Below are positions 1,633 to 38,914 of a stretch of 40,325 nucleotides of DNA, one piece after another. The notes under the pieces are model-generated. The model did no database searches and was not told the origin of the DNA. It saw only the letters and a list, made by a program, of their open reading frames with translations. Origin of the DNA: Deferrisomatales bacterium (GTDB lineage: Bacteria; Desulfobacterota; Deferrisomatia; Deferrisomatales; JACRMM01); the NCBI GenBank assembly GCA_033551855.1, contig JAWSUI010000008.1, positions 51,064 through 91,388 of the forward strand. Direction: 5' to 3'. How positions within the stretch are numbered: position 1 is the stretch's first letter; each line of letters begins with the position of its first letter. The translations under genes and the position numbers were made by a program.

Positions 1633-3471
1633 ATGACGGAAAGATTCGGTCCTGCCTCGCGCCTCGCCCTGTTCCTCGCCGGCCTGCTCCTGATCCCCCT
1701 GTGGGGGGCGCCCGCCCAGGGGAGCATCGATGACAGCCAGTGTCTCGAGTGCCACGACGAGATAGACTACGAGGCCTACAACCTCTCGGCCCACGGGCGC
1801 CACGCCTGCAACAGCTGTCACTTCGACGTCATCGACATCGCGGACCACGAGACCTGCGGGTCGGCGACCCAGCAGAAGGCGGAGACGTGCCACCGGTGCC
1901 ACCCCCTGGAGGGGCGGGACCACTTCGCCTCGGTCCACATGATCAACGACATCAAGTGCGCCGACTGTCACTCCGATATCCACTCGATTCAGAAGTGGGA
2001 GGGAGACAAGCAGATGAGCGTGGACAAGTGCCTGGGCTGCCACGACGGCAGCGATTACCAGGCCAGCGTCCACGGCCAGGCCGTGGCCCGGGGCTCGCCC
2101 GACGCCCCCTCCTGTGCCGACTGTCACGGCCTGCACCGGATCGAGCCCCTGGGGGAGCCCGGCACCCACGAGTACCGCGCGTTCCACACCGAGACCTGCC
2201 AGCGCTGTCACGCCGATGCCGAGATGATGGCGCGAAACGGCGTGCTCCCCATCGCGGTGACGACCTACGAGGACAGCTACCACGGCAAGGTCGTGCGACT
2301 GGGCTCGGTCTTGGGGGCTGGGTGCTCCGACTGCCACGGGGCGCACGGGGTTTTCGCCCAGGACGACCCGCGGTCCGCCATCCACCTGGACAACCTGACG
2401 GAGACCTGCGGCGCCTGCCATCCCGGGAGCACGGACCGGTTCGCACAGTTCCTGGCCCACGCCGACTACATGGACCGCGAGAACTACCCGCTCCTCTTCT
2501 ACACCTTCGTGGTCATGACGAGTCTTCTCGTCACGGTCTTCTCGGTCTTCTGGATCCACACCTTGCTTTGGTGGCGCAAGGCCTATTGGTCTCGGCGGGA
2601 ACACCTCATGGCCGGCCACTTCGGCCACCCCCACGTCGATGAGCCCCTGCGGCCCTACCGGCGGTTCAGCTGGTTCGACAAGCTCCTACACCTCTTGATG
2701 GTGGTGAGCTTCCTCGGGCTCGTAGTCACCGGCCTCCCGCTCAAGTTCCACCGGGCGCCCTGGGCCGGCGCCCTCATGGACCTGATGGGCGGCCCCCACA
2801 TGGCCGGGGCCATCCACCGGATCTGCGCCCTGATCACGTTCCTCTACTTCGGCCTGTGCATGGCCTACATCGTGTACTTCCTGTTCTTCAAGAAGACCGG
2901 CGGGACGCCGCTCCAGAAGCTCTTCGGGCCCGACTCGCTCTTCCCCAACCTCCGCGACGTGGCCGACATCACCGCCATGTTCCGGTGGTTCTTCGGAACC
3001 GGGAAGGAGCCCCGTTTCGAGCGGTGGACCTACTGGGAGAAGTTCGACTTCCTCGCGGTCTTCTGGGGCATGTTCGCCATCGGCGGGTCCGGCCTCCTGC
3101 TGTGGTTCCCGGAGTTCTTCGGGCGCTTCATGCCGGGGTGGATCTTCAACGTGGCCATCATCGTGCACAGTGACGAGGCCCTTCTGGCGTCGGGCTTCAT
3201 CTTCACCGTGCACTTCTTCAACACCCACTTCCGCCCCGGCAAGTTCCCCATGGACATGGTGATCTTCCGGGGGCGCATGCCCAAATGGGAGCTCTACGAG
3301 GAGCGGGCGGACTGGGTGGAGCGCCTGAAGAGCGAAGGGCGGCTGGAGGCCATGGAATCCCGTCCGTCTCACCCCCTGGAGGATCTGTTCGGCCACCTCT
3401 TCGGGTTTGTCGCCCTGGGGGTGGGGCTTCTGTGCATCGTGCTGATCGTGTGGGGCTTCCTGGCCCACTGA
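1633..3471 (+). CDS. cbcL: CbcL-like inner-membrane protein: periplasmic nonaheme c-type domain plus cytochrome b (FdnI/HydC-like) membrane domain
   Basis: ATG 1633 with GGGGAG RBS and a signal peptide. Nine CXXCH motifs (CLECH, CNSCH, CHRCH, CADCH, CLGCH, CADCH, CQRCH, CSDCH, CGACH). TM domain with His ligands (LLHLL, AIHRI, IVHSDEA, TVHFFNTH) and 'RWTYWEKFDFLAVFWG'. Same architecture as Geobacter CbcL. Confidence 0.85.
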   Translation: MTERFGPASRLALFLAGLLLIPLWGAPAQGSIDDSQCLECHDEIDYEAYNLSAHGRHACNSCHFDVIDIADHETCGSATQQKAETCHRCHPLEGRDHFASVHMINDIKCADCHSDIHSIQKWEGDKQMSVDKCLGCHDGSDYQASVHGQAVARGSPDAPSCADCHGLHRIEPLGEPGTHEYRAFHTETCQRCHADAEMMARNGVLPIAVTTYEDSYHGKVVRLGSVLGAGCSDCHGAHGVFAQDDPRSAIHLDNLTETCGACHPGSTDRFAQFLAHADYMDRENYPLLFYTFVVMTSLLVTVFSVFWIHTLLWWRKAYWSRREHLMAGHFGHPHVDEPLRPYRRFSWFDKLLHLLMVVSFLGLVVTGLPLKFHRAPWAGALMDLMGGPHMAGAIHRICALITFLYFGLCMAYIVYFLFFKKTGGTPLQKLFGPDSLFPNLRDVADITAMFRWFFGTGKEPRFERWTYWEKFDFLAVFWGMFAIGGSGLLLWFPEFFGRFMPGWIFNVAIIVHSDEALLASGFIFTVHFFNTHFRPGKFPMDMVIFRGRMPKWELYEERADWVERLKSEGRLEAMESRPSHPLEDLFGHLFGFVALGVGLLCIVLIVWGFLAH

Positions 3472-3742: not shown

Positions 3743-5143
3743 TCAGTCCCCCTCGATGCACACCTCGCGCAGCCGGGACGCCAGGTCCGTGACGCCGCTG
3801 CGCTCGGCCGTGTGGCAGCGGCGGCAGGACGCGAGGGTCCCCCTCCCGGTGACCAGCTTCTCCTCACCCCCGGACGCCACGTGGAGGGAGCCCGGCCCGT
3901 GGCACGCCTCGCACTGGACGTTGGTGAACCCCTCCAGGGCCTTCCAGTCGATCGTCTCTTCCTCACACTCGAAGGCCACCGCGTGGCAGGCGATGCACTC
4001 GGCGTCGAACTGCCGCTTGCGCTCCACCAGGGTCTGGTAGGCGCGGGCGTGGCGGGTCTGGGCCCAGCCCTGGTATCGCCCGGCGTGGCACTGGCGGCAG
4101 GCGGCGAGCCCCACGTACTCGCTTCCGCAGTCGGGGTCGCCCGGCGTCGAGACCGCCTTGGCCAGCTCTTCCTGGAGGGTCGAGAGCTCCTTCAGGGCCC
4201 GCTCGACCATGGGGCCCACCTTCGGGTGGTCGGGCATCTCCACCAGGAGTTGCACGAAGCTGTGGCGGAAGAGAAACTCCCCCACCGCCGGCCCCCCCCG
4301 CGCCCCCCCGCCCGCGGCCTCGGTTCCGGCCCTGCTCACCTCGAGGCGCCCGACGGACCGGCCCCCACGGTCCAGGTGGGTGATGAAGGAGTCTTGCACC
4401 ACCAGGGGGAGGGTGATCTGGTTGCGCTGGTCGCTGCCGACGATGAGGTGGATGGGCTCGCCCACCATGGCCAGCCGCCTCTTGGCCCGGCTCGTCATGT
4501 CGGTGAGCAGGACGATCAGCTCCGCGCCTTGGGCGCGCATCTCGGCCACGGCGGACAGGGCCGCCTCGGCGGGGTCCGTGACGGAAAACTTGTGGCTGGC
4601 CGGAATCTTGTCCCGCTTGAGGTCCGCGTCCACCAGCCCGAAGATGCCGACCTTGATGCCCCCGAGCTCCTTGAGCACGTAGCGCTGGAAGAGGTGGCGG
4701 CCGTGGGGGTCCACGAGGTTCGCCGAGACGAAGGGAAACCGGGCCTTGGCCTGCTTGTCGAGCAGATAGTCCATGCCCAGGGAGAGATCGTAGGCGCCTA
4801 TATTGAAGGCGTCGCAGCCCATCTCGTCGTAGGCGGCGAGGATCAGGTCCGCGGTCATGCGGGCGGGGGGCACGCGGTCCCGGGGAAGCTGCTCCCTCCG
4901 GAAGAGGGAGTTCCCGGCGTTGACGAAGAGGACCGGCTGCCCCTCTTGCCGCACCGTGTCGAGGTAGGTTGCTCGCTTGGCCAGACCGCCACGCGGGTTC
5001 TTCAGTCACCCGCAGGGGCTGATCTCGCCCCGCTCATCCACCGTGTAGACGACGGTCAGGCCCGGCGTGGGCGGTTGCGCCAGCGTCCCGGAAGGGGCGA
5101 CCAAGCCCACCAGGGCGAGCAGGGAAGGGAGTAGGCGCCGCAT
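3743..5143 (-). CDS. UshA-like (5'-nucleotidase fold) selenoprotein with C-terminal tetraheme c554-like domain; UGA codon 46 read as Sec
   Basis: ATG 5143 (GGAGGA RBS upstream) gives signal peptide MRRLLPSLLALVGLVAPSGTLA, then 'LTVVYTVDERGEISPCG-UGA-LKNPRGGLAKRAT', in frame with the 3743..4954 ORF. Four CXXCH (CRQCH, CIACH, CEACH, CRRCH). 466 aa with readthrough. Confidence 0.85.
4972..5008 (-). promoter_or_regulatory. Candidate bacterial SECIS element directly 3' of the UGA (5006-5008)
   Basis: mRNA UGA CUG AAG AAC CCG CGU GGC GGU CUG GCC AAG. Stem UGGC/GCCA closes a GGUCUG loop. GGUCU lies at +19..+23 from the UGA, as in the E. coli fdhF SECIS. Confidence 0.7.
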
Positions 5144-5294
5144 GGGTGTTCCTCCGGTTCCGGGAGTCGGGAGCGGGGCCGTTCCGGCCTTCTACCCGCG
5201 CCCTTCGAACTCTAGCAGACCCGCGCGCTGACGCACAACCGGGGCCGACACCCAGCGGCACCTCCCCGCCCGCTCGTGCTTCAGCGCTGCCCGG

Positions 5295-5324
5295 TTGATC
5301 GGCGCGGGTCCACTTGGGTACACT
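5295..5324 (+). promoter_or_regulatory. Putative sigma70 promoter for the def-fmt operon
   Basis: TTGATC-N18-TACACT about 50 nt upstream of the def start. Confidence 0.45.
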
Positions 5325-13998: not shown

Positions 13999-14900
13999 TC
14001 CGCCGCCGGCTTCTCACGACCGTGCCGACCCTCCTGGGGGTCGTGACCCTGGTGTTCGCGTTCCTGCACCTGGTTCCCGGGGACCCGGTGGACGTGATGC
14101 TGGGGGAGACCGCCCGGGCGGCCGACAAGCAGGCCTTGGCCGCCGAGCTGGGACTGGATCGGCCGGTGCTCGAACAGTACGGGGCCTACCTGGCGGGGCT
14201 GGCCCGGGCGGACCTGGGCCGGAGCTTCACCTATCGAAAGCCGGTCCGGGAGGTGATCGCGGGGCGCTTGCCCGCCACCCTCCAGCTTGCCGGGTGCGCC
14301 CTCGCGGTTGCCCTGCTGGTGGCGGTGCCCCTAGGAGTCCTGGCCGCGGTGCGCAAAGACTCTGCCCTCGACCGGGGCAGCCTGGTTGCGAGCCTGCTCG
14401 GTGTCTCCATGCCGAACTTCTGGCTGGGGCCTCTCCTGATCCTCCTGTTCGCCGTCCATCTGGGTTGGTTCCCGGTCTCGGGCCGCGAGGGCTGGCGGAG
14501 CGTCGTGCTGCCGGCGATCACTCTGGGCACGGGGCTCGCCGCGATCCTCTCGCGCATGCTCCGGTCGAGCCTCGTCGAGGTCCTGCGCAGCGACTACCTG
14601 GCGGCGGCCCGCGCCCGGGGGGTGCGGGAGAGTCGAGTCATCTGGGTCCATGCGCTGCGAAACGCCTGCCTCCCGGTCATCACCCTCCTGGGCCTCCAAC
14701 TCGGCAACCTGCTGTCGGGAGCGGTCATCACCGAGGCCGTCTTCGCGTGGCCCGGGATCGGCACCCTCCTGCTCCAGGCGCTCCAAGGTCGGGACTACCC
14801 CCTGGCCCAGGGGTGCGTCCTCGTCATCAGCCTCGGATACGTGGGCGCCAACCTCCTCGCCGACCTTTTGTACCGGGCGGCGGACCCGAGGGTGCGGTGA
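13995..14900 (+). CDS. Peptide ABC transporter permease (OppB/DppB-like)
   Basis: 'PGDPV', 'SMPNFWLG', EAA-like 'AARARGV..SRVIWVHALRNA', 'ITEAVFAWPGIG'. GTGA overlap with the SBP stop. Confidence 0.93.
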   Translation: MIRRRLLTTVPTLLGVVTLVFAFLHLVPGDPVDVMLGETARAADKQALAAELGLDRPVLEQYGAYLAGLARADLGRSFTYRKPVREVIAGRLPATLQLAGCALAVALLVAVPLGVLAAVRKDSALDRGSLVASLLGVSMPNFWLGPLLILLFAVHLGWFPVSGREGWRSVVLPAITLGTGLAAILSRMLRSSLVEVLRSDYLAAARARGVRESRVIWVHALRNACLPVITLLGLQLGNLLSGAVITEAVFAWPGIGTLLLQALQGRDYPLAQGCVLVISLGYVGANLLADLLYRAADPRVR

Positions 14901-33717: not shown

Positions 33718-36700
33718 ATGACCCGACGCCCGAGAACGATCCTCGCCGCCCTGCTCCTGTTGGCCGCGCCCGCCCTGGCGCCCGGGCAGACGCGGACGGA
33801 CGGGAGCACTCAGCGACTCGGGACGGGGACGCAGGGACTCCCGATCCCGCCCGGGATGGACGTGAACAAGCTCTTGGAGGAGTACACCCGATCGCGAGCC
33901 CGGCCGCAGGAAGGCGTCACGCCCTTCCCGCCCCGGGACGTGGAGGCCGAGGAGGTGCGCGTCCCCCCCCCGGACCGGGAGGCCCTCACCGCCCGCGGAC
34001 TGTTCGAGAAAGCTGCCAAGACCCTGCTCCAGGACGGCCGCCTCGACGAGGAGAAGCGGCGGTTCCTGCTCGGGAAGGCCTCGGAGCTGGGGATGGACCG
34101 GCGGGAGGCCATGGACCTGGCGGAGAAGATCGCCGAAGAGCGCCGGAAGATCGCGGACTTCTTTCTGGCCCAGGTCAAGGCGCGGGAGGGCAAGCTCACC
34201 GCCGAGGACAAACGGTATCTGGAGCAACAGGGCCGGGACCTGGGGCTGGACCCCTGGGAGACCGGGGACATGATCGGCCTGGCCCTGGAGCGGTATCGGA
34301 AGCGGGAGGTCTACCGGTCCATCGTCAAGGAGTTCCTCGACGACGGCATCCTGATCGCGTCCGAGGAGCAGCACCTGGAGGAGAAGAGAAAGGAGCTGGG
34401 CCTCACCCGGGAGGAGCACCGGGAGATCCTGGACGCCGAGAGGGAAAAGCGCCTGGAGCGGGCCCGGGACGTGTTCTCCGACATCCGAGAGGAGGGCCGC
34501 GCTCGGGCCCTCCCGGAACGGGAGCTCGACCTGTACGGGAGGAACCTCTTCCGATCCTCCGGTCCTGGGGCCTTCCGGCCCGTCACCGGGCTGGCCCCCC
34601 CGGACAACTACCGGGTGGGGCCGGGTGACACCTTCGAGGTCTTCCTGTGGGGGCGGCTGGAGGCCAGTTACTACCTCCCGGTCGACTCCGAGGGCAGGGT
34701 GCAGTTCCCCCAGGTGGGCTCGGTGAAGGTCGGGGGCCTCACCTACGCCGAGGCCAAGGGGATACTGAAGCAGAGAGCCGAGGCGATCACGGGGGTCAAC
34801 GCCGCGGTCACCATGGCCGAGACGCGCTCCGTGCAGGTCTTCGTGGTCGGGGAGGTCGAGCGGCCCGGGGCGATGATCCTGACCCCCTTGTCCACCGTGG
34901 TCCACGCCCTCATGGCCGCCGGCGGACCCACCCCCATCGGGTCCCTGCGGGGGGTCGCCCTGCGCAGGGGGGGGAGCCCGGCCGCGTCCCTGGACCTCTA
35001 CGACTTCCTCCGGGAGGGGCAGACCCGGGGCGACCGCCCCCTCGAGAACGGGGACGTGATCGTTGTGCCCAGGGCCCAGCGCCTCGTGCACCTCCACGGC
35101 CAGGTGAAGAGCCCGGCCGTCTACGAGCTGCGCGAGGGGGAGGGCCTGCGGGTCCTCCTGGAGTACGCGGGGGGGTTGGCGGCCGAAGCCAACGCCGGCC
35201 GCGTCCAGGTGGAGCGGGCGGTCCGAAACGAGCAGCGCGTCGTGCTGGACGTGGCCCTGGGGGAGCTCCCCGGGGACGTGCCGCTCCAGGACGGCGACCG
35301 GGTGCGGGTGTTCCCGCTGGCACCGGAGATCCGCAACGAGGTGGGGCTCTTCGGCCACGTCCACCGCCCGGGAACGTACGCCCACGAAGAGGGGATGCGG
35401 GTCGCCGATCTCATCCGCGGGACCGAGGCGCTCAAGCCCGAGGTGGATCTCTCCTATGCGGCGGTGCTCCGGGAAGACCCGGAGAGCCGGGAGAGGGTGG
35501 TCATCCCTTTCCACCTCGGGGGCGCTCTCCGCAACGACCCGGGGCAGAACCTGCCTCTCCGGCCCAGGGACGAAGTATATGTGTTCCAGTCCTCCCGGTT
35601 CCGCCCGCCCCTGCGCGCCCAGGCCAGCGGCGAGGTTCGAAAGCCCGGGTTGTACCGCATCGAGAAAGGGGCCCGGGTGTCCGACCTCGTGCGGCTTGCG
35701 GGAGGGCTCACGCCGGAAGCCTTCCTGCCCCGGGCCGAGGTGCTGCGCTACCACCCGGACCGCAGCCGCAAGACCCTGTACGTGGACCTCGGCAGGGCCA
35801 TGGAGGCAGACCCGCACCACGACCTGGAGCTCGCCGACGAGGACCAGCTGGTGGTGCATCCGGCGTGGGCCCAGCGCCCGCGGGAGATCGTCCTCATCGA
35901 GGGCGAGGTCCAGGGGGCCCGTGCGGAGGTTCTGCGGCGGGGCAGGACGGTGCGCCAACGCCTGGCGGATCTCCTGGGCGCCGGGGCGCCGGCAGGGGGG
36001 GCCGCGGGCGAGACCGCGGGCGCCTCCGAAGAGGACCCGGGATCGGGGGATGTCCTGGAGGGGGTGACCCGCACCCAGGTGGCGAGTGAGCAGGGGCCGG
36101 TGGCGGTGGAGGTTCCCCTCACCCGGGGGATGACCGTCCGAGACCTGGTGTTCAAGGCCGGAGGTCTCACCAAGGATGCCTACCTGCCGGTGGCGACCCT
36201 TTACCGGACCGATCCGTTTTCCAAAGAGACCATCATCCGAACCTTCGATCTCGGAAGGGCGCTGGAGGGCGACCCCGCGGAAGACACGGTGCTCCAGGAC
36301 CTGGACCACGTCGTGGTCCACTCGGCGTATGAATTCGCGCCGGTGCGCAGGGTCCACGTCTCGGGGATGGTCAGCCGGCCGGGACCGTACCCGTACGCGG
36401 GGAACATGAGGGTTCGCGACCTGATCCTGGCCTCGGGCGGCCTCACCGAGGAGGCCTATCAGGAGGAGGCCGAGGTCGTCCGTGCGGAGGTGGTGGACGG
36501 CGAAGTGGTGCAGACGCGCACCATCCCGTTCTCGCTGGTGCGGGCCATGGCCGGCGACGAGGATGCCAACCTGCCCCTCGAACCCCGGGACCGGGTGTTC
36601 GTAAAGACCATCCCGGATTGGCGGGAGACCCGGCAGGTCGTCCTCGCGGGAGAGGTGCTGTTCCCGGGCGTCTACCACGTCGCGAAGGGAGAATCCCTGT

Positions 36701-37407
36701 CGAGTGTCTTGAACCGGGCCGGTGGATTCACGTCGGAGGCATACCTCCGCGGCGCGGTCTTCACCCGGGAGAGCGCCCGCCAGCTCCAGCAGCAGCGGCT
36801 CGACGAGCTGCGGGAGCGCCTGCAGCAGCAGATCCTCCGGGTGGCCTCCCAGGAGGTGCAGGGGGCCCTCAGCGCCGAAGACGTGGAGGCGCAGAAGCAG
36901 TACCTGATCGGGCAGCAGGCGCTGGTCCAGAAGCTTCGGGAGACCCGCGCCACGGGCCGCGTCGTGGTGAGCCTCCTCCCGCTGGAGAAGATGGAAGGCA
37001 CGGAGTGGGACATCCCCCTGGAGGACGGCGACAAACTGACGGTGCCCAGCGTCCCGCAGACGGTGTCCGTGGTGGGGCAGGTCTACAATCCGACCAGCCT
37101 GCTATGGGAGACGAACAGGCGCTCGGTGCAAAACTACCTCTTCAAGACCGGCGGCCCGACGCCCGATGCCGACGCCAAGGACATCTATGTGGTGCGCGCG
37201 GACGGCACGGTCGTGAGCTCCAAGAGCCTGGGGGAGGGGAACTGGTGGAACCGGGGGGGGATTCACGACCTGGAGCTGTACCCGGGAGACACCGTGCTCG
37301 TGCCGGAGAAAGTCTTACGTGTCAACTACCTCAGGGGAATTCGGGACATCTCTCAGGTCCTGTACCAGATCGCCGTCACCGCCGGGGTGGCCGTGGCGTT
37401 GTTCTGA
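33718..37407 (+). CDS. Large multi-SLBB polysaccharide export protein (Wza/KpsD/OtnA-like) with extra N-terminal helical repeats
   Basis: Signal peptide, 'PDNYRVGPGD' Poly_export domain, many 'V.GEV..PG.Y' SLBB repeats, C-terminal amphipathic 'IRDISQVLYQIAVTAGV'. Confidence 0.9.
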   Translation: MTRRPRTILAALLLLAAPALAPGQTRTDGSTQRLGTGTQGLPIPPGMDVNKLLEEYTRSRARPQEGVTPFPPRDVEAEEVRVPPPDREALTARGLFEKAAKTLLQDGRLDEEKRRFLLGKASELGMDRREAMDLAEKIAEERRKIADFFLAQVKAREGKLTAEDKRYLEQQGRDLGLDPWETGDMIGLALERYRKREVYRSIVKEFLDDGILIASEEQHLEEKRKELGLTREEHREILDAEREKRLERARDVFSDIREEGRARALPERELDLYGRNLFRSSGPGAFRPVTGLAPPDNYRVGPGDTFEVFLWGRLEASYYLPVDSEGRVQFPQVGSVKVGGLTYAEAKGILKQRAEAITGVNAAVTMAETRSVQVFVVGEVERPGAMILTPLSTVVHALMAAGGPTPIGSLRGVALRRGGSPAASLDLYDFLREGQTRGDRPLENGDVIVVPRAQRLVHLHGQVKSPAVYELREGEGLRVLLEYAGGLAAEANAGRVQVERAVRNEQRVVLDVALGELPGDVPLQDGDRVRVFPLAPEIRNEVGLFGHVHRPGTYAHEEGMRVADLIRGTEALKPEVDLSYAAVLREDPESRERVVIPFHLGGALRNDPGQNLPLRPRDEVYVFQSSRFRPPLRAQASGEVRKPGLYRIEKGARVSDLVRLAGGLTPEAFLPRAEVLRYHPDRSRKTLYVDLGRAMEADPHHDLELADEDQLVVHPAWAQRPREIVLIEGEVQGARAEVLRRGRTVRQRLADLLGAGAPAGGAAGETAGASEEDPGSGDVLEGVTRTQVASEQGPVAVEVPLTRGMTVRDLVFKAGGLTKDAYLPVATLYRTDPFSKETIIRTFDLGRALEGDPAEDTVLQDLDHVVVHSAYEFAPVRRVHVSGMVSRPGPYPYAGNMRVRDLILASGGLTEEAYQEEAEVVRAEVVDGEVVQTRTIPFSLVRAMAGDEDANLPLEPRDRVFVKTIPDWRETRQVVLAGEVLFPGVYHVAKGESLSSVLNRAGGFTSEAYLRGAVFTRESARQLQQQRLDELRERLQQQILRVASQEVQGALSAEDVEAQKQYLIGQQALVQKLRETRATGRVVVSLLPLEKMEGTEWDIPLEDGDKLTVPSVPQTVSVVGQVYNPTSLLWETNRRSVQNYLFKTGGPTPDADAKDIYVVRADGTVVSSKSLGEGNWWNRGGIHDLELYPGDTVLVPEKVLRVNYLRGIRDISQVLYQIAVTAGVAVALF

Positions 37408-37924: not shown

Positions 37925-38914
37925 ATGCCCGAGCACCCGAACGCACCCTCCGGCACCGGCCCCGGGATCCCGGCCGAACCCGGTCAGGCTCCTCCCGGCG
38001 GCTATCCCCTGTACCCCCCCTACTGGGTCCCCCCGCCGGAAGACGAGATCAGTCTGCTCGACCTCCTGGCGGTGCTGCGCCGCCGATGGCTCCTCATCGC
38101 CGTCGTCACCCTCCTGGGCACCGGGGCCGCGGTAGCCTATGCCCTCCTGGCCACCCCCATCTACCGCGCCCAGGCCGTCATCGCGCCGCCCGAGCAGAAG
38201 AAGGGGGGCGCAGCCTCCATGGCCCTGGCCGCCTTCGGGGGCCTGGGAGCCGAGCTCGCGGGCAGCCTGGGCGTCAACCTCGGCGGCACCGACGCCAACC
38301 GGCTGGAGGCGCTCCTGAAGAGCCGTCGGCTCCTGGAGCGCACGGTCACCAAGTACGGCCTTCTGCCCGTGCTCTTCGAGAAAGACTGGGACGCCGAGAA
38401 AGAGACCTGGGCTGTCAAGAACCCGAAAGACGCCCCCACCTTCTGGGACGCCGAGAAGAAGCTCGAGAAGATCTACAGCGTCCGAAACGACGCCAAGGCC
38501 GGGGTGCTCCGGGTCTCCTTCGACTGGAAGGAGACCGCCCGGGCGCGTCAGGTGCTCGAGGCCTTCCTGACCGAGCTCGCCCTCTCCATGCAGGAAGACG
38601 AGCTTCGCAAGATCGAGGCCAACCGGACCTTCGCCGAGACGCAGCTCGCCCAGGCCACCGACCCCGTGATCGTGGCCAAGCTCCAGGGCCTCCTCTCCGA
38701 GCAGGTGGAAAAAGCGATGATGGCCCAGAACGTGGAGCACTTCGCCTTCGAGCTCATCGACCCGGCGGCGGTCTCGGACCGCAAGGTCAAGCCGAAGCGC
38801 GCCCTGGTCGCCGCCGTCGGGCTCACCACGAGCGCGTTCTTGGGGATCTTTCTTTCCTTCTTGGCCGAGTGGTTGCACCGCGTAAGCGCCGCGAGCACAG
38901 CCCGCGGGAGGTGA
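37925..38914 (+). CDS. wzz: Wzz/FepE-family polysaccharide chain-length determinant
   Basis: 'EDEISLLDLLAVL', TM1, 'PIYRAQAVI', 'IDPA...KVKPKRALV', TM2. Confidence 0.88.
   Translation: MPEHPNAPSGTGPGIPAEPGQAPPGGYPLYPPYWVPPPEDEISLLDLLAVLRRRWLLIAVVTLLGTGAAVAYALLATPIYRAQAVIAPPEQKKGGAASMALAAFGGLGAELAGSLGVNLGGTDANRLEALLKSRRLLERTVTKYGLLPVLFEKDWDAEKETWAVKNPKDAPTFWDAEKKLEKIYSVRNDAKAGVLRVSFDWKETARARQVLEAFLTELALSMQEDELRKIEANRTFAETQLAQATDPVIVAKLQGLLSEQVEKAMMAQNVEHFAFELIDPAAVSDRKVKPKRALVAAVGLTTSAFLGIFLSFLAEWLHRVSAASTARGR

Follow-up and report, generated by a model that had tools for sequence, protein, structure and literature searches.

MccSep of G. sulfurreducens, a periplasmic selenoenzyme with five hemes, is required for S0 respiration and reduces polysulfide as well as selenite; its selenocysteine (Sec) sits on a second domain, 3.6 Å away from the Cys that ligates the His/Cys heme 2 (PMC13510729, available text). 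In UshA a helix joins the catalytic and lid domains, and on a 96 degree rotation the C-terminal domain comes to cover the metal site (PMC8475336, available text). Heme 2 is the open active site in OcwA and cytochrome c554 (bioRxiv 10.1101/641308, available text). A selenoprotein family is tabulated as "COG0737, UshA-like, CxU" in the available text of PMC13188914, PMC9312934 and PMC2398784. It has been on selenoprotein lists since at least 2008 and, with 76 marine sequences, is one of the 20 major marine selenoprotein families, no function being given in the available text of that source (PMC2398784). Here we compare these systems with a gene in a window of 40,325 nucleotides (the whole stretch of DNA that was analysed) from a Deferrisomatales bacterium. 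The gene and its leading parts are the following.

3743..5143, minus strand: whole gene, 466 aa, from ATG 5143 to the stop codon at 3745-3743, with one internal TGA.
5150..5155, minus strand: ribosome-binding site GGAGGA, 6 nt upstream of ATG 5143, read from the sequence.
5078..5143, minus strand: putative export signal peptide, residues 1-22, from its pattern by eye and the similar leaders of homologues.
5006..5014, minus strand: C44-G45-U46 motif, from the reading frame and the codons of homologous loci.

A mechanical list of open reading frames begins this protein at GTG 4954 and gives it 403 aa, without the leader and the C-G-U loop. An earlier note on this DNA had placed the start at the upstream ATG, behind GGAGGA and ahead of a leader and an in-frame TGA, and on re-reading all of its coordinates were correct. 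The internal TGA (5008-5006) is codon 46, and the frame is open from there to 3743. The leader is hydrophobic and, judged by eye, ends in A-x-A at residue 22; it is followed by YTVDERGEISPCG and then by the TGA. Four CXXCH motifs were found where the note had put them, after the UshA-like part (residues 349, 383, 411 and 440). A contig from sequencing run X1, which is possibly the source data of the assembly, is identical over 4310-5300, and run X2 contains diverged relatives only.

The genome, 100% complete by markers, carries selA, selB and selD above their profile cut-offs and a tRNA-Sec gene on contig C4; its selD itself contains one TGA. A second tRNA-Sec call by ARAGORN, at about 14191-14280 (+) of the window, lies inside an ABC permease frame and was judged spurious. 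Codon 46 was surveyed in 94 distinct motif-bearing genes, counted after duplicate loci had been taken out and with exclusion of five loci that yielded no motif (L074, L077, L119, L120 and L121). It is TGA in 83 of these homologous loci and a Cys codon (TGC or TGT) in 11, and since the sequences were selected by the motif, the invariance of C44, G45 and U46 is partly built in. The best 18 full-length matches, the gene included, have one TGA each. That 83 loci share a TGA at this codon while 11 have a Cys aligned with it argues against a true stop, a sequencing error or a recent nonsense mutation, as do the complete Sec machinery and the agreement of the X1 contig, be it possibly source data. 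The point in favour of such a reading is that the hairpin behind the codon is not unusually stable, and we consider it effectively refuted.

4974..4995, minus strand: bacterial SECIS-type hairpin, +11..+32, with GGUCU at 4987-4983, from folding and comparative counts.

In this hairpin UGGC (+15..+18) pairs with GCCA (+25..+28) around the loop GGUCUG. The stem and the position of GGUCU at +19..+23 had been described in the earlier note and both stand, with conservation to support them, but the predicted stability equals that of shuffled sequences (z 0.06, -0.62 and 0.63). Hairpin energy was consequently dropped as evidence, and since it is unremarkable next to the shuffles our case for the insertion signal is a comparative one. 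GGTCT occurs at +19..+23 in 74 of the 83 Sec loci and in 0 of the 11 Cys loci, the three upper stem pairs are intact in 65/83 against 0/11, and the spacing from U to GG is constant in 81/83 Sec genes and 6/11 Cys genes; the genomes are related, hence these are not independent events, and the contrast with the Cys genes is still clear. Of the 83 Sec genes, 78 have GGT as their second Gly codon; among the remaining 2791 Gly codons of these genes GGT accounts for 418, and this gene itself uses GGT for only 2 of its 45 Gly codons. The Sec codon of the genome's own formate dehydrogenase is followed by GGTCT at the same offset (+19..+23), and both paralogues of the gene (contigs C9 and C80) likewise have it after their TGA; genome-wide, 60 out of 72,299 TGA triplets do. 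The loop of the E. coli fdhF SECIS reportedly has an offset equal to that of this gene. In all, UGA 46 is almost certainly read as Sec, and the refuting findings foreseen in the earlier note were not encountered: the machinery is present, homologues keep Sec or Cys, and the TGA is conserved. Two further TGA codons with GGTCT at +19 lie in long open frames (G000:C3:41872 (-) and G000:C3:108065 (-)) and mark possible selenoproteins.

The protein is a new member of an already catalogued family. Its score for NCBIfam NF041198, "UshA-like (seleno)protein" (UshA_like_PCGU), is 355.8 bits, or 348 when the whole genome is searched, where the cut-off is 275, and it has the P-C-G-U/C motif ahead of G-G that this family requires. 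Model positions 15-266 (nucleotidase-like) and 349-513 (cytochrome) both match, which indicates that the fusion of UshA-like and cytochrome parts belongs to the curated family. The novelty of the fusion implied in the earlier note was thus overstated, as the model spans both domains and the family is in selenoproteome reviews; that UshA-like CxU proteins are reported selenoproteins without a function agrees with the available text of the three lists cited above. A term search of the available text of PMC11492766 and PMC10454023 returned no mention of selenocysteine. Nothing excludes membership in NF041198, and the cut-off of the second family of UshA-like (seleno)proteins, NF049981, is not reached (41.5 bits against 140). 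Matches above the NF041198 cut-off were obtained in 69 out of 301 sampled genomes of the phylum, and three copies are present in this genome (contigs C8, C9 and C80). The paralogues (G000:C9:6067-7536 (-) and G000:C80:7883-9244 (+)) both have the TGA and the same SECIS-type signal, and the last ligand position of the heme domain is Cys in the C9 copy and His in the C80 copy. Close homologues that bear names are labelled Thermodesulfobacteriota or Deferrisomatales. The best 30 database hits span 76-86% of the protein because gene callers cut such genes behind the UGA, and the signal peptide and active loop are thereby lost from annotation.

4154..5059, minus strand: UshA/5'-nucleotidase N-terminal fold with metal and catalytic residues missing and a linker helix at its end, from alignment and a predicted model.

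Alignment with the solved nucleotidase 2Z1A confirmed the altered metallophosphoesterase ligands reported in the earlier note (DAGD to NAGN, GNHE to GAYD, LSH to LTD, GGH to GSD), to which HTNDTH to YTVDER can be added. The protein lacks the DxH His, two residues of GNHE (its Asn and its catalytic His) and the two later His. Across 154 aligned sequences the positions corresponding to UshA H43, N116 and H117 are not conserved, and roughly one third of the family has His at the equivalents of H217 and H252. Since N78, D215, D238 and A117 co-vary strongly across the family alignment, the metal site appears to be retained or lost as one unit, and by the alignment it is lost in this protein. The UshA profile is not reached (42 bits against a cut-off of 600), nor is that of SoxB (TIGR04486, 33.3 bits against 550). 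The C-terminal 5'-nucleotidase domain PF02872 gave no Pfam match, and PF13435 stands there instead.

A model predicted for the mature chain places both domains together with pLDDT 92.7 and pTM 0.92, the confidence of the ten-residue block that holds C-G-U being 80. Its best structural match is UshA (Z 32.2, rmsd 2.4, 288 residues aligned), and SoxB gives Z 30.9. The predicted likeness to E. coli UshA, CD73 and SoxB thus covers the N-terminal fold and the linker helix (Z 30-32, rmsd 2.4-2.8); unlike them, this protein has neither the dimetal nor the catalytic residues, and a tetraheme domain replaces the C-terminal substrate-binding domain. A nucleotidase-like or SoxB-like hydrolase with an altered metal site, in which the hemes do a separate job, would be compatible with the intact predicted fold, with a D36 that is invariant in the clade and acidic residues at D215 and D238, and with the Asp/His/His set that about a third of the family keeps at one metal site. 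We nevertheless regard it as very unlikely, given the missing His and Asn residues, the replaced substrate-binding domain and the SoxB score of 33 bits against 550.

In the predicted model the linker helix leads to the heme domain as it leads to the lid in UshA. The superposition continues into the heme domain by some 30-50 residues, to 312-332 in total, in 7 of 14 rows titled "closed" and 0 of 4 titled "open", half of the closed-form rows being without it, and it was seen in three further structure rows, including SoxB 2wdd. As the extension occurs in closed and not in open rows, it hints that the cytochrome probably takes the closed-lid position of the UshA-like fold. Covariation between the domains is weak (the best pair, S237-F406, at rank 18 and R82-Q378 at rank 42, effective number 251) and cannot probe C44 and U46, which are both invariant.

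3746..4126, minus strand: cytochrome c554/OcwA-type tetraheme domain with candidate ligands H365, H421 and C462, and with C339/C393, from Pfam and alignment.

This domain matches PF13435 with 43.5 bits (gathering score 20.8), and its heme motifs align in order with hemes 1-4 of OcwA and with cytochrome c554, with two distal His aligned. It differs from c554 and OcwA in being fused to a Sec domain and in having Cys as its last candidate ligand. Outside the CXXCH motifs the heme domain contains three Cys and two His (365 and 421). Of 145 sequences, 16 have both C339 and C393 and 129 have neither; as these two occur jointly or not at all they likely form a disulfide, which leaves C462 as the free candidate. 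The corresponding C-terminal position, with three labels corrected by hand, is Cys in 58, His in 9 and another residue in 7 of 74 Sec loci, and His in 45, Cys in 14 and another residue in one of 60 Cys-type proteins. From this distribution C462 probably ligates a heme. With four hemes and three candidate distal ligands, heme 2 would be left open, the allotment of individual ligands to individual hemes being one that we presume by analogy.

A co-evolution of Sec with the C-terminal Cys was considered and rejected because both fall in one large clade (unrooted FastTree with midpoint root, 142 sequences). In the Sec-type loci L080-L087 and L050 the last ligand position is neither Cys nor His (Met in L050). 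The C-G-U loop can exist without a fused heme: members without the heme domain keep it (for example L053, L056, L083, L127 and L128), and a heme-less UshA-like paralogue stands in tandem with a full-length gene in L140, L146, L147 and L148. Residues invariant in the clade cluster in the C-G-U loop and the heme motifs.

Together with the absence of any evident replacement for the hydrolase residues, this clustering favours an electron-carrier or regulatory cytochrome in which the C-G-U loop is a redox switch or a metal or heme ligand without turnover, and the heme-less C-G-U forms point the same way. Conserved Sec is typical of catalytic residues. We hold such a role to be distinctly unlikely, as Sec is kept in 83/94 loci with a conserved insertion signal and heme 2 of c554-type domains is catalytic in relatives (bioRxiv 10.1101/641308, available text).

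Two cytochrome genes are neighbours of the gene.

1633..3471, plus strand: gene with nine CXXCH and a cytochrome-b-like membrane domain, CbcL-like in architecture, a convergent conserved neighbour, from motifs and neighbourhood comparison.
G000:C8:47910-50141, plus strand: 743-aa protein with 16 CXXCH and a NapC/NrfH-type head, a conserved neighbour that ends about 0.9 kb before the window.

CbcL of Geobacter has nine c-hemes (PMC13591261, available text), and the nine-heme neighbour resembles it in these motifs and in the b-type membrane domain, by architecture and not by alignment. Like the NapC/NrfH quinol oxidases, the 16-heme protein has an N-terminal NapC/NirT domain, which exceeds the Pfam cut-off; it is far longer than NrfH and reached no NCBIfam cut-off. 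From these NapC/NrfH and CbcL architectures we infer that both neighbours would be quinol-oxidising donors.

The linkage to these cytochromes is conserved. Among 21 loci (20 orthologue loci and the first 14 kb of the window) the 16-heme NapC/NrfH-headed gene is present in 17 and the nine-heme/cytochrome-b gene in 15. In the 301-genome sample of the phylum the orthologue (E at most 2.1e-79) occurs in 23 genomes and a close 16-heme homologue (at least 47% identity) in 22, all 22 within the 23, both thresholds having been set after the rankings were known. A wide score gap sets the 16-heme group off from what follows; for the orthologue the gap is narrow, and the next group is a separate tree branch. 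The co-occurrence covers six families, in genomes that are related and thus not independent. Out of 22 cases the two genes lie less than 1 kb apart in 17, less than 5 kb apart in 18 and 39 kb apart in one, and three have them on different contigs. The orientation of the three genes varies and is mostly divergent; usually they are divergent or convergent and do not form a single operon. Another 28 genomes of the sample have more distant 16-heme homologues, in some cases adjoining family members (G255 and G138), and the paralogues on C9 and C80 have no such cytochrome neighbours. Proteins with three or more CXXCH number at least 30 in the genome, and one of 660 aa has 26 (G000:C24:50676-52658 (-)).

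Neither a functional study of the family nor a description of the three-gene module was found in a non-exhaustive literature search with supplements outside its scope. To the catalogued family we add the linkage of this clade to the 16-heme protein, the ligand count with Cys462, and the predicted UshA-like fold with its probable closed-lid cytochrome. Within NF041198, with which it shares P-C-G-U and both domains, the clade is set apart by the loss of all metal-site His, a heme domain ending in Cys and two membrane-cytochrome neighbours.

Our main reading, to which we give a probability of roughly 45%, is that of a periplasmic Sec/heme oxidoreductase that is fed by quinol and cleaves S-S or S-Se bonds, with polysulfide as the likeliest substrate and selenite as a possible side substrate. 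Its parts differ in strength: the protein is quite probably a redox enzyme coupled to its own hemes and, given that, polysulfide or related sulfur would somewhat probably be the main substrate. Once the UGA is decoded as Sec, the protein would be exported and loaded with heme. The 16-heme and nine-heme/cytochrome-b neighbours would oxidise quinol and donate electrons to hemes 1, 3 and 4 (His/His, His/His and His/Cys462), which would serve as a wire, heme 2 having no distal ligand from its own domain. The heme domain would close on the former active-site cleft so that C44 and U46 work beside heme 2, where Sec could attack the substrate and heme electrons free the product, as proposed for MccSep. 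The earlier note had proposed a phosphatase fold repurposed to wire Cys/Sec to hemes. Its Sec, its metal-site loss and its tetraheme fusion stand, and the redox role, which we still infer, is strengthened by the conserved cytochrome neighbours and by the Sec/heme precedent of MccSep (PMC13510729, available text). Heme-less C-G-U members, the weak inter-domain covariation and a C-terminal ligand that is not fixed count against the main reading, as do the usual lack of a common operon, the paralogues without cytochrome neighbours and the closed-form rows without an extended superposition.

The same anatomy and neighbours would also suit a quinol-fed Sec/heme reductase of protein or small-molecule disulfides, sulfoxides, peroxides or metalloid oxyanions that serves repair or detoxification and not sulfur respiration. 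C-G-C forms of the Cys type are found widely in other lineages, the presence of three paralogues in this genome suggests several substrates, and membership in a major marine selenoprotein family (PMC2398784, available text) fits a general redox job. The dedicated 16-heme and nine-heme/cytochrome-b partners, which suggest high-flux respiration, and the candidate His/Cys heme, a feature of sulfur enzymes (PMC13510729, available text), argue in the other direction, and we find such a role somewhat unlikely.

The main reading, an oxidoreductase of S-S or S-Se bonds, makes the protein a proposed functional analogue of MccSep and not a member of its family. Like MccSep/ExtKL (NF040886) it is a multiheme selenoprotein, by prediction periplasmic, with Sec in a second domain and a predicted His/Cys heme (PMC13510729, available text). 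It has four heme motifs and MccSep five; its Sec is residue 46, in an N-terminal C-G-U loop on a nucleotidase fold, whereas that of MccSep is in a C-terminal Ig-like domain; and the Cys ligand would belong to heme 4 here and belongs to heme 2 in MccSep (PMC13510729, available text). The main text of PMC13510729 does not mention UshA. A search of the genome with NF040886 gave three weak matches, the best with 51.5 bits against a cut-off of 250, and this gene is none of them. The best match, G000:C43:22442-23713 (+), is a 423-aa five-heme protein without an in-frame stop, adjoins a 4-heme gene and lies near a 5-heme gene. The NF040886 cut-off was not reached in this genome and the five module-bearing genomes checked, and dsrA was not found in this genome; the role is therefore not visibly filled by MccSep or dsr enzymes.

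A bolder form of the main reading, which we judge unlikely, sees in the family a Sec/heme chalcogen reductase that was built a second time, independently, with a three-gene module for sulfur respiration, in bacteria without MccSep. A hinge would then close the cytochrome over the dead site, Cys44 would ligate heme 2 on its open face, and polysulfide would be attacked by Sec46, the Cys/Sec pair of MccSep being packed into one tripeptide. If the main reading is true, it would add a second route to sulfur or selenium respiration. With the conserved cytochrome neighbours and the MccSep work, a long-listed family gains a specific candidate function that can be tested through its donors, residues C44, U46 and C462, and heme 2.

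Elsewhere in the window, 33718-37407 (+) encodes a protein of 1229 aa whose repeated segments look like a polysaccharide export protein, and behind it, at 37925-38914, comes a chain-length-determinant-like gene; both were labelled by eye.
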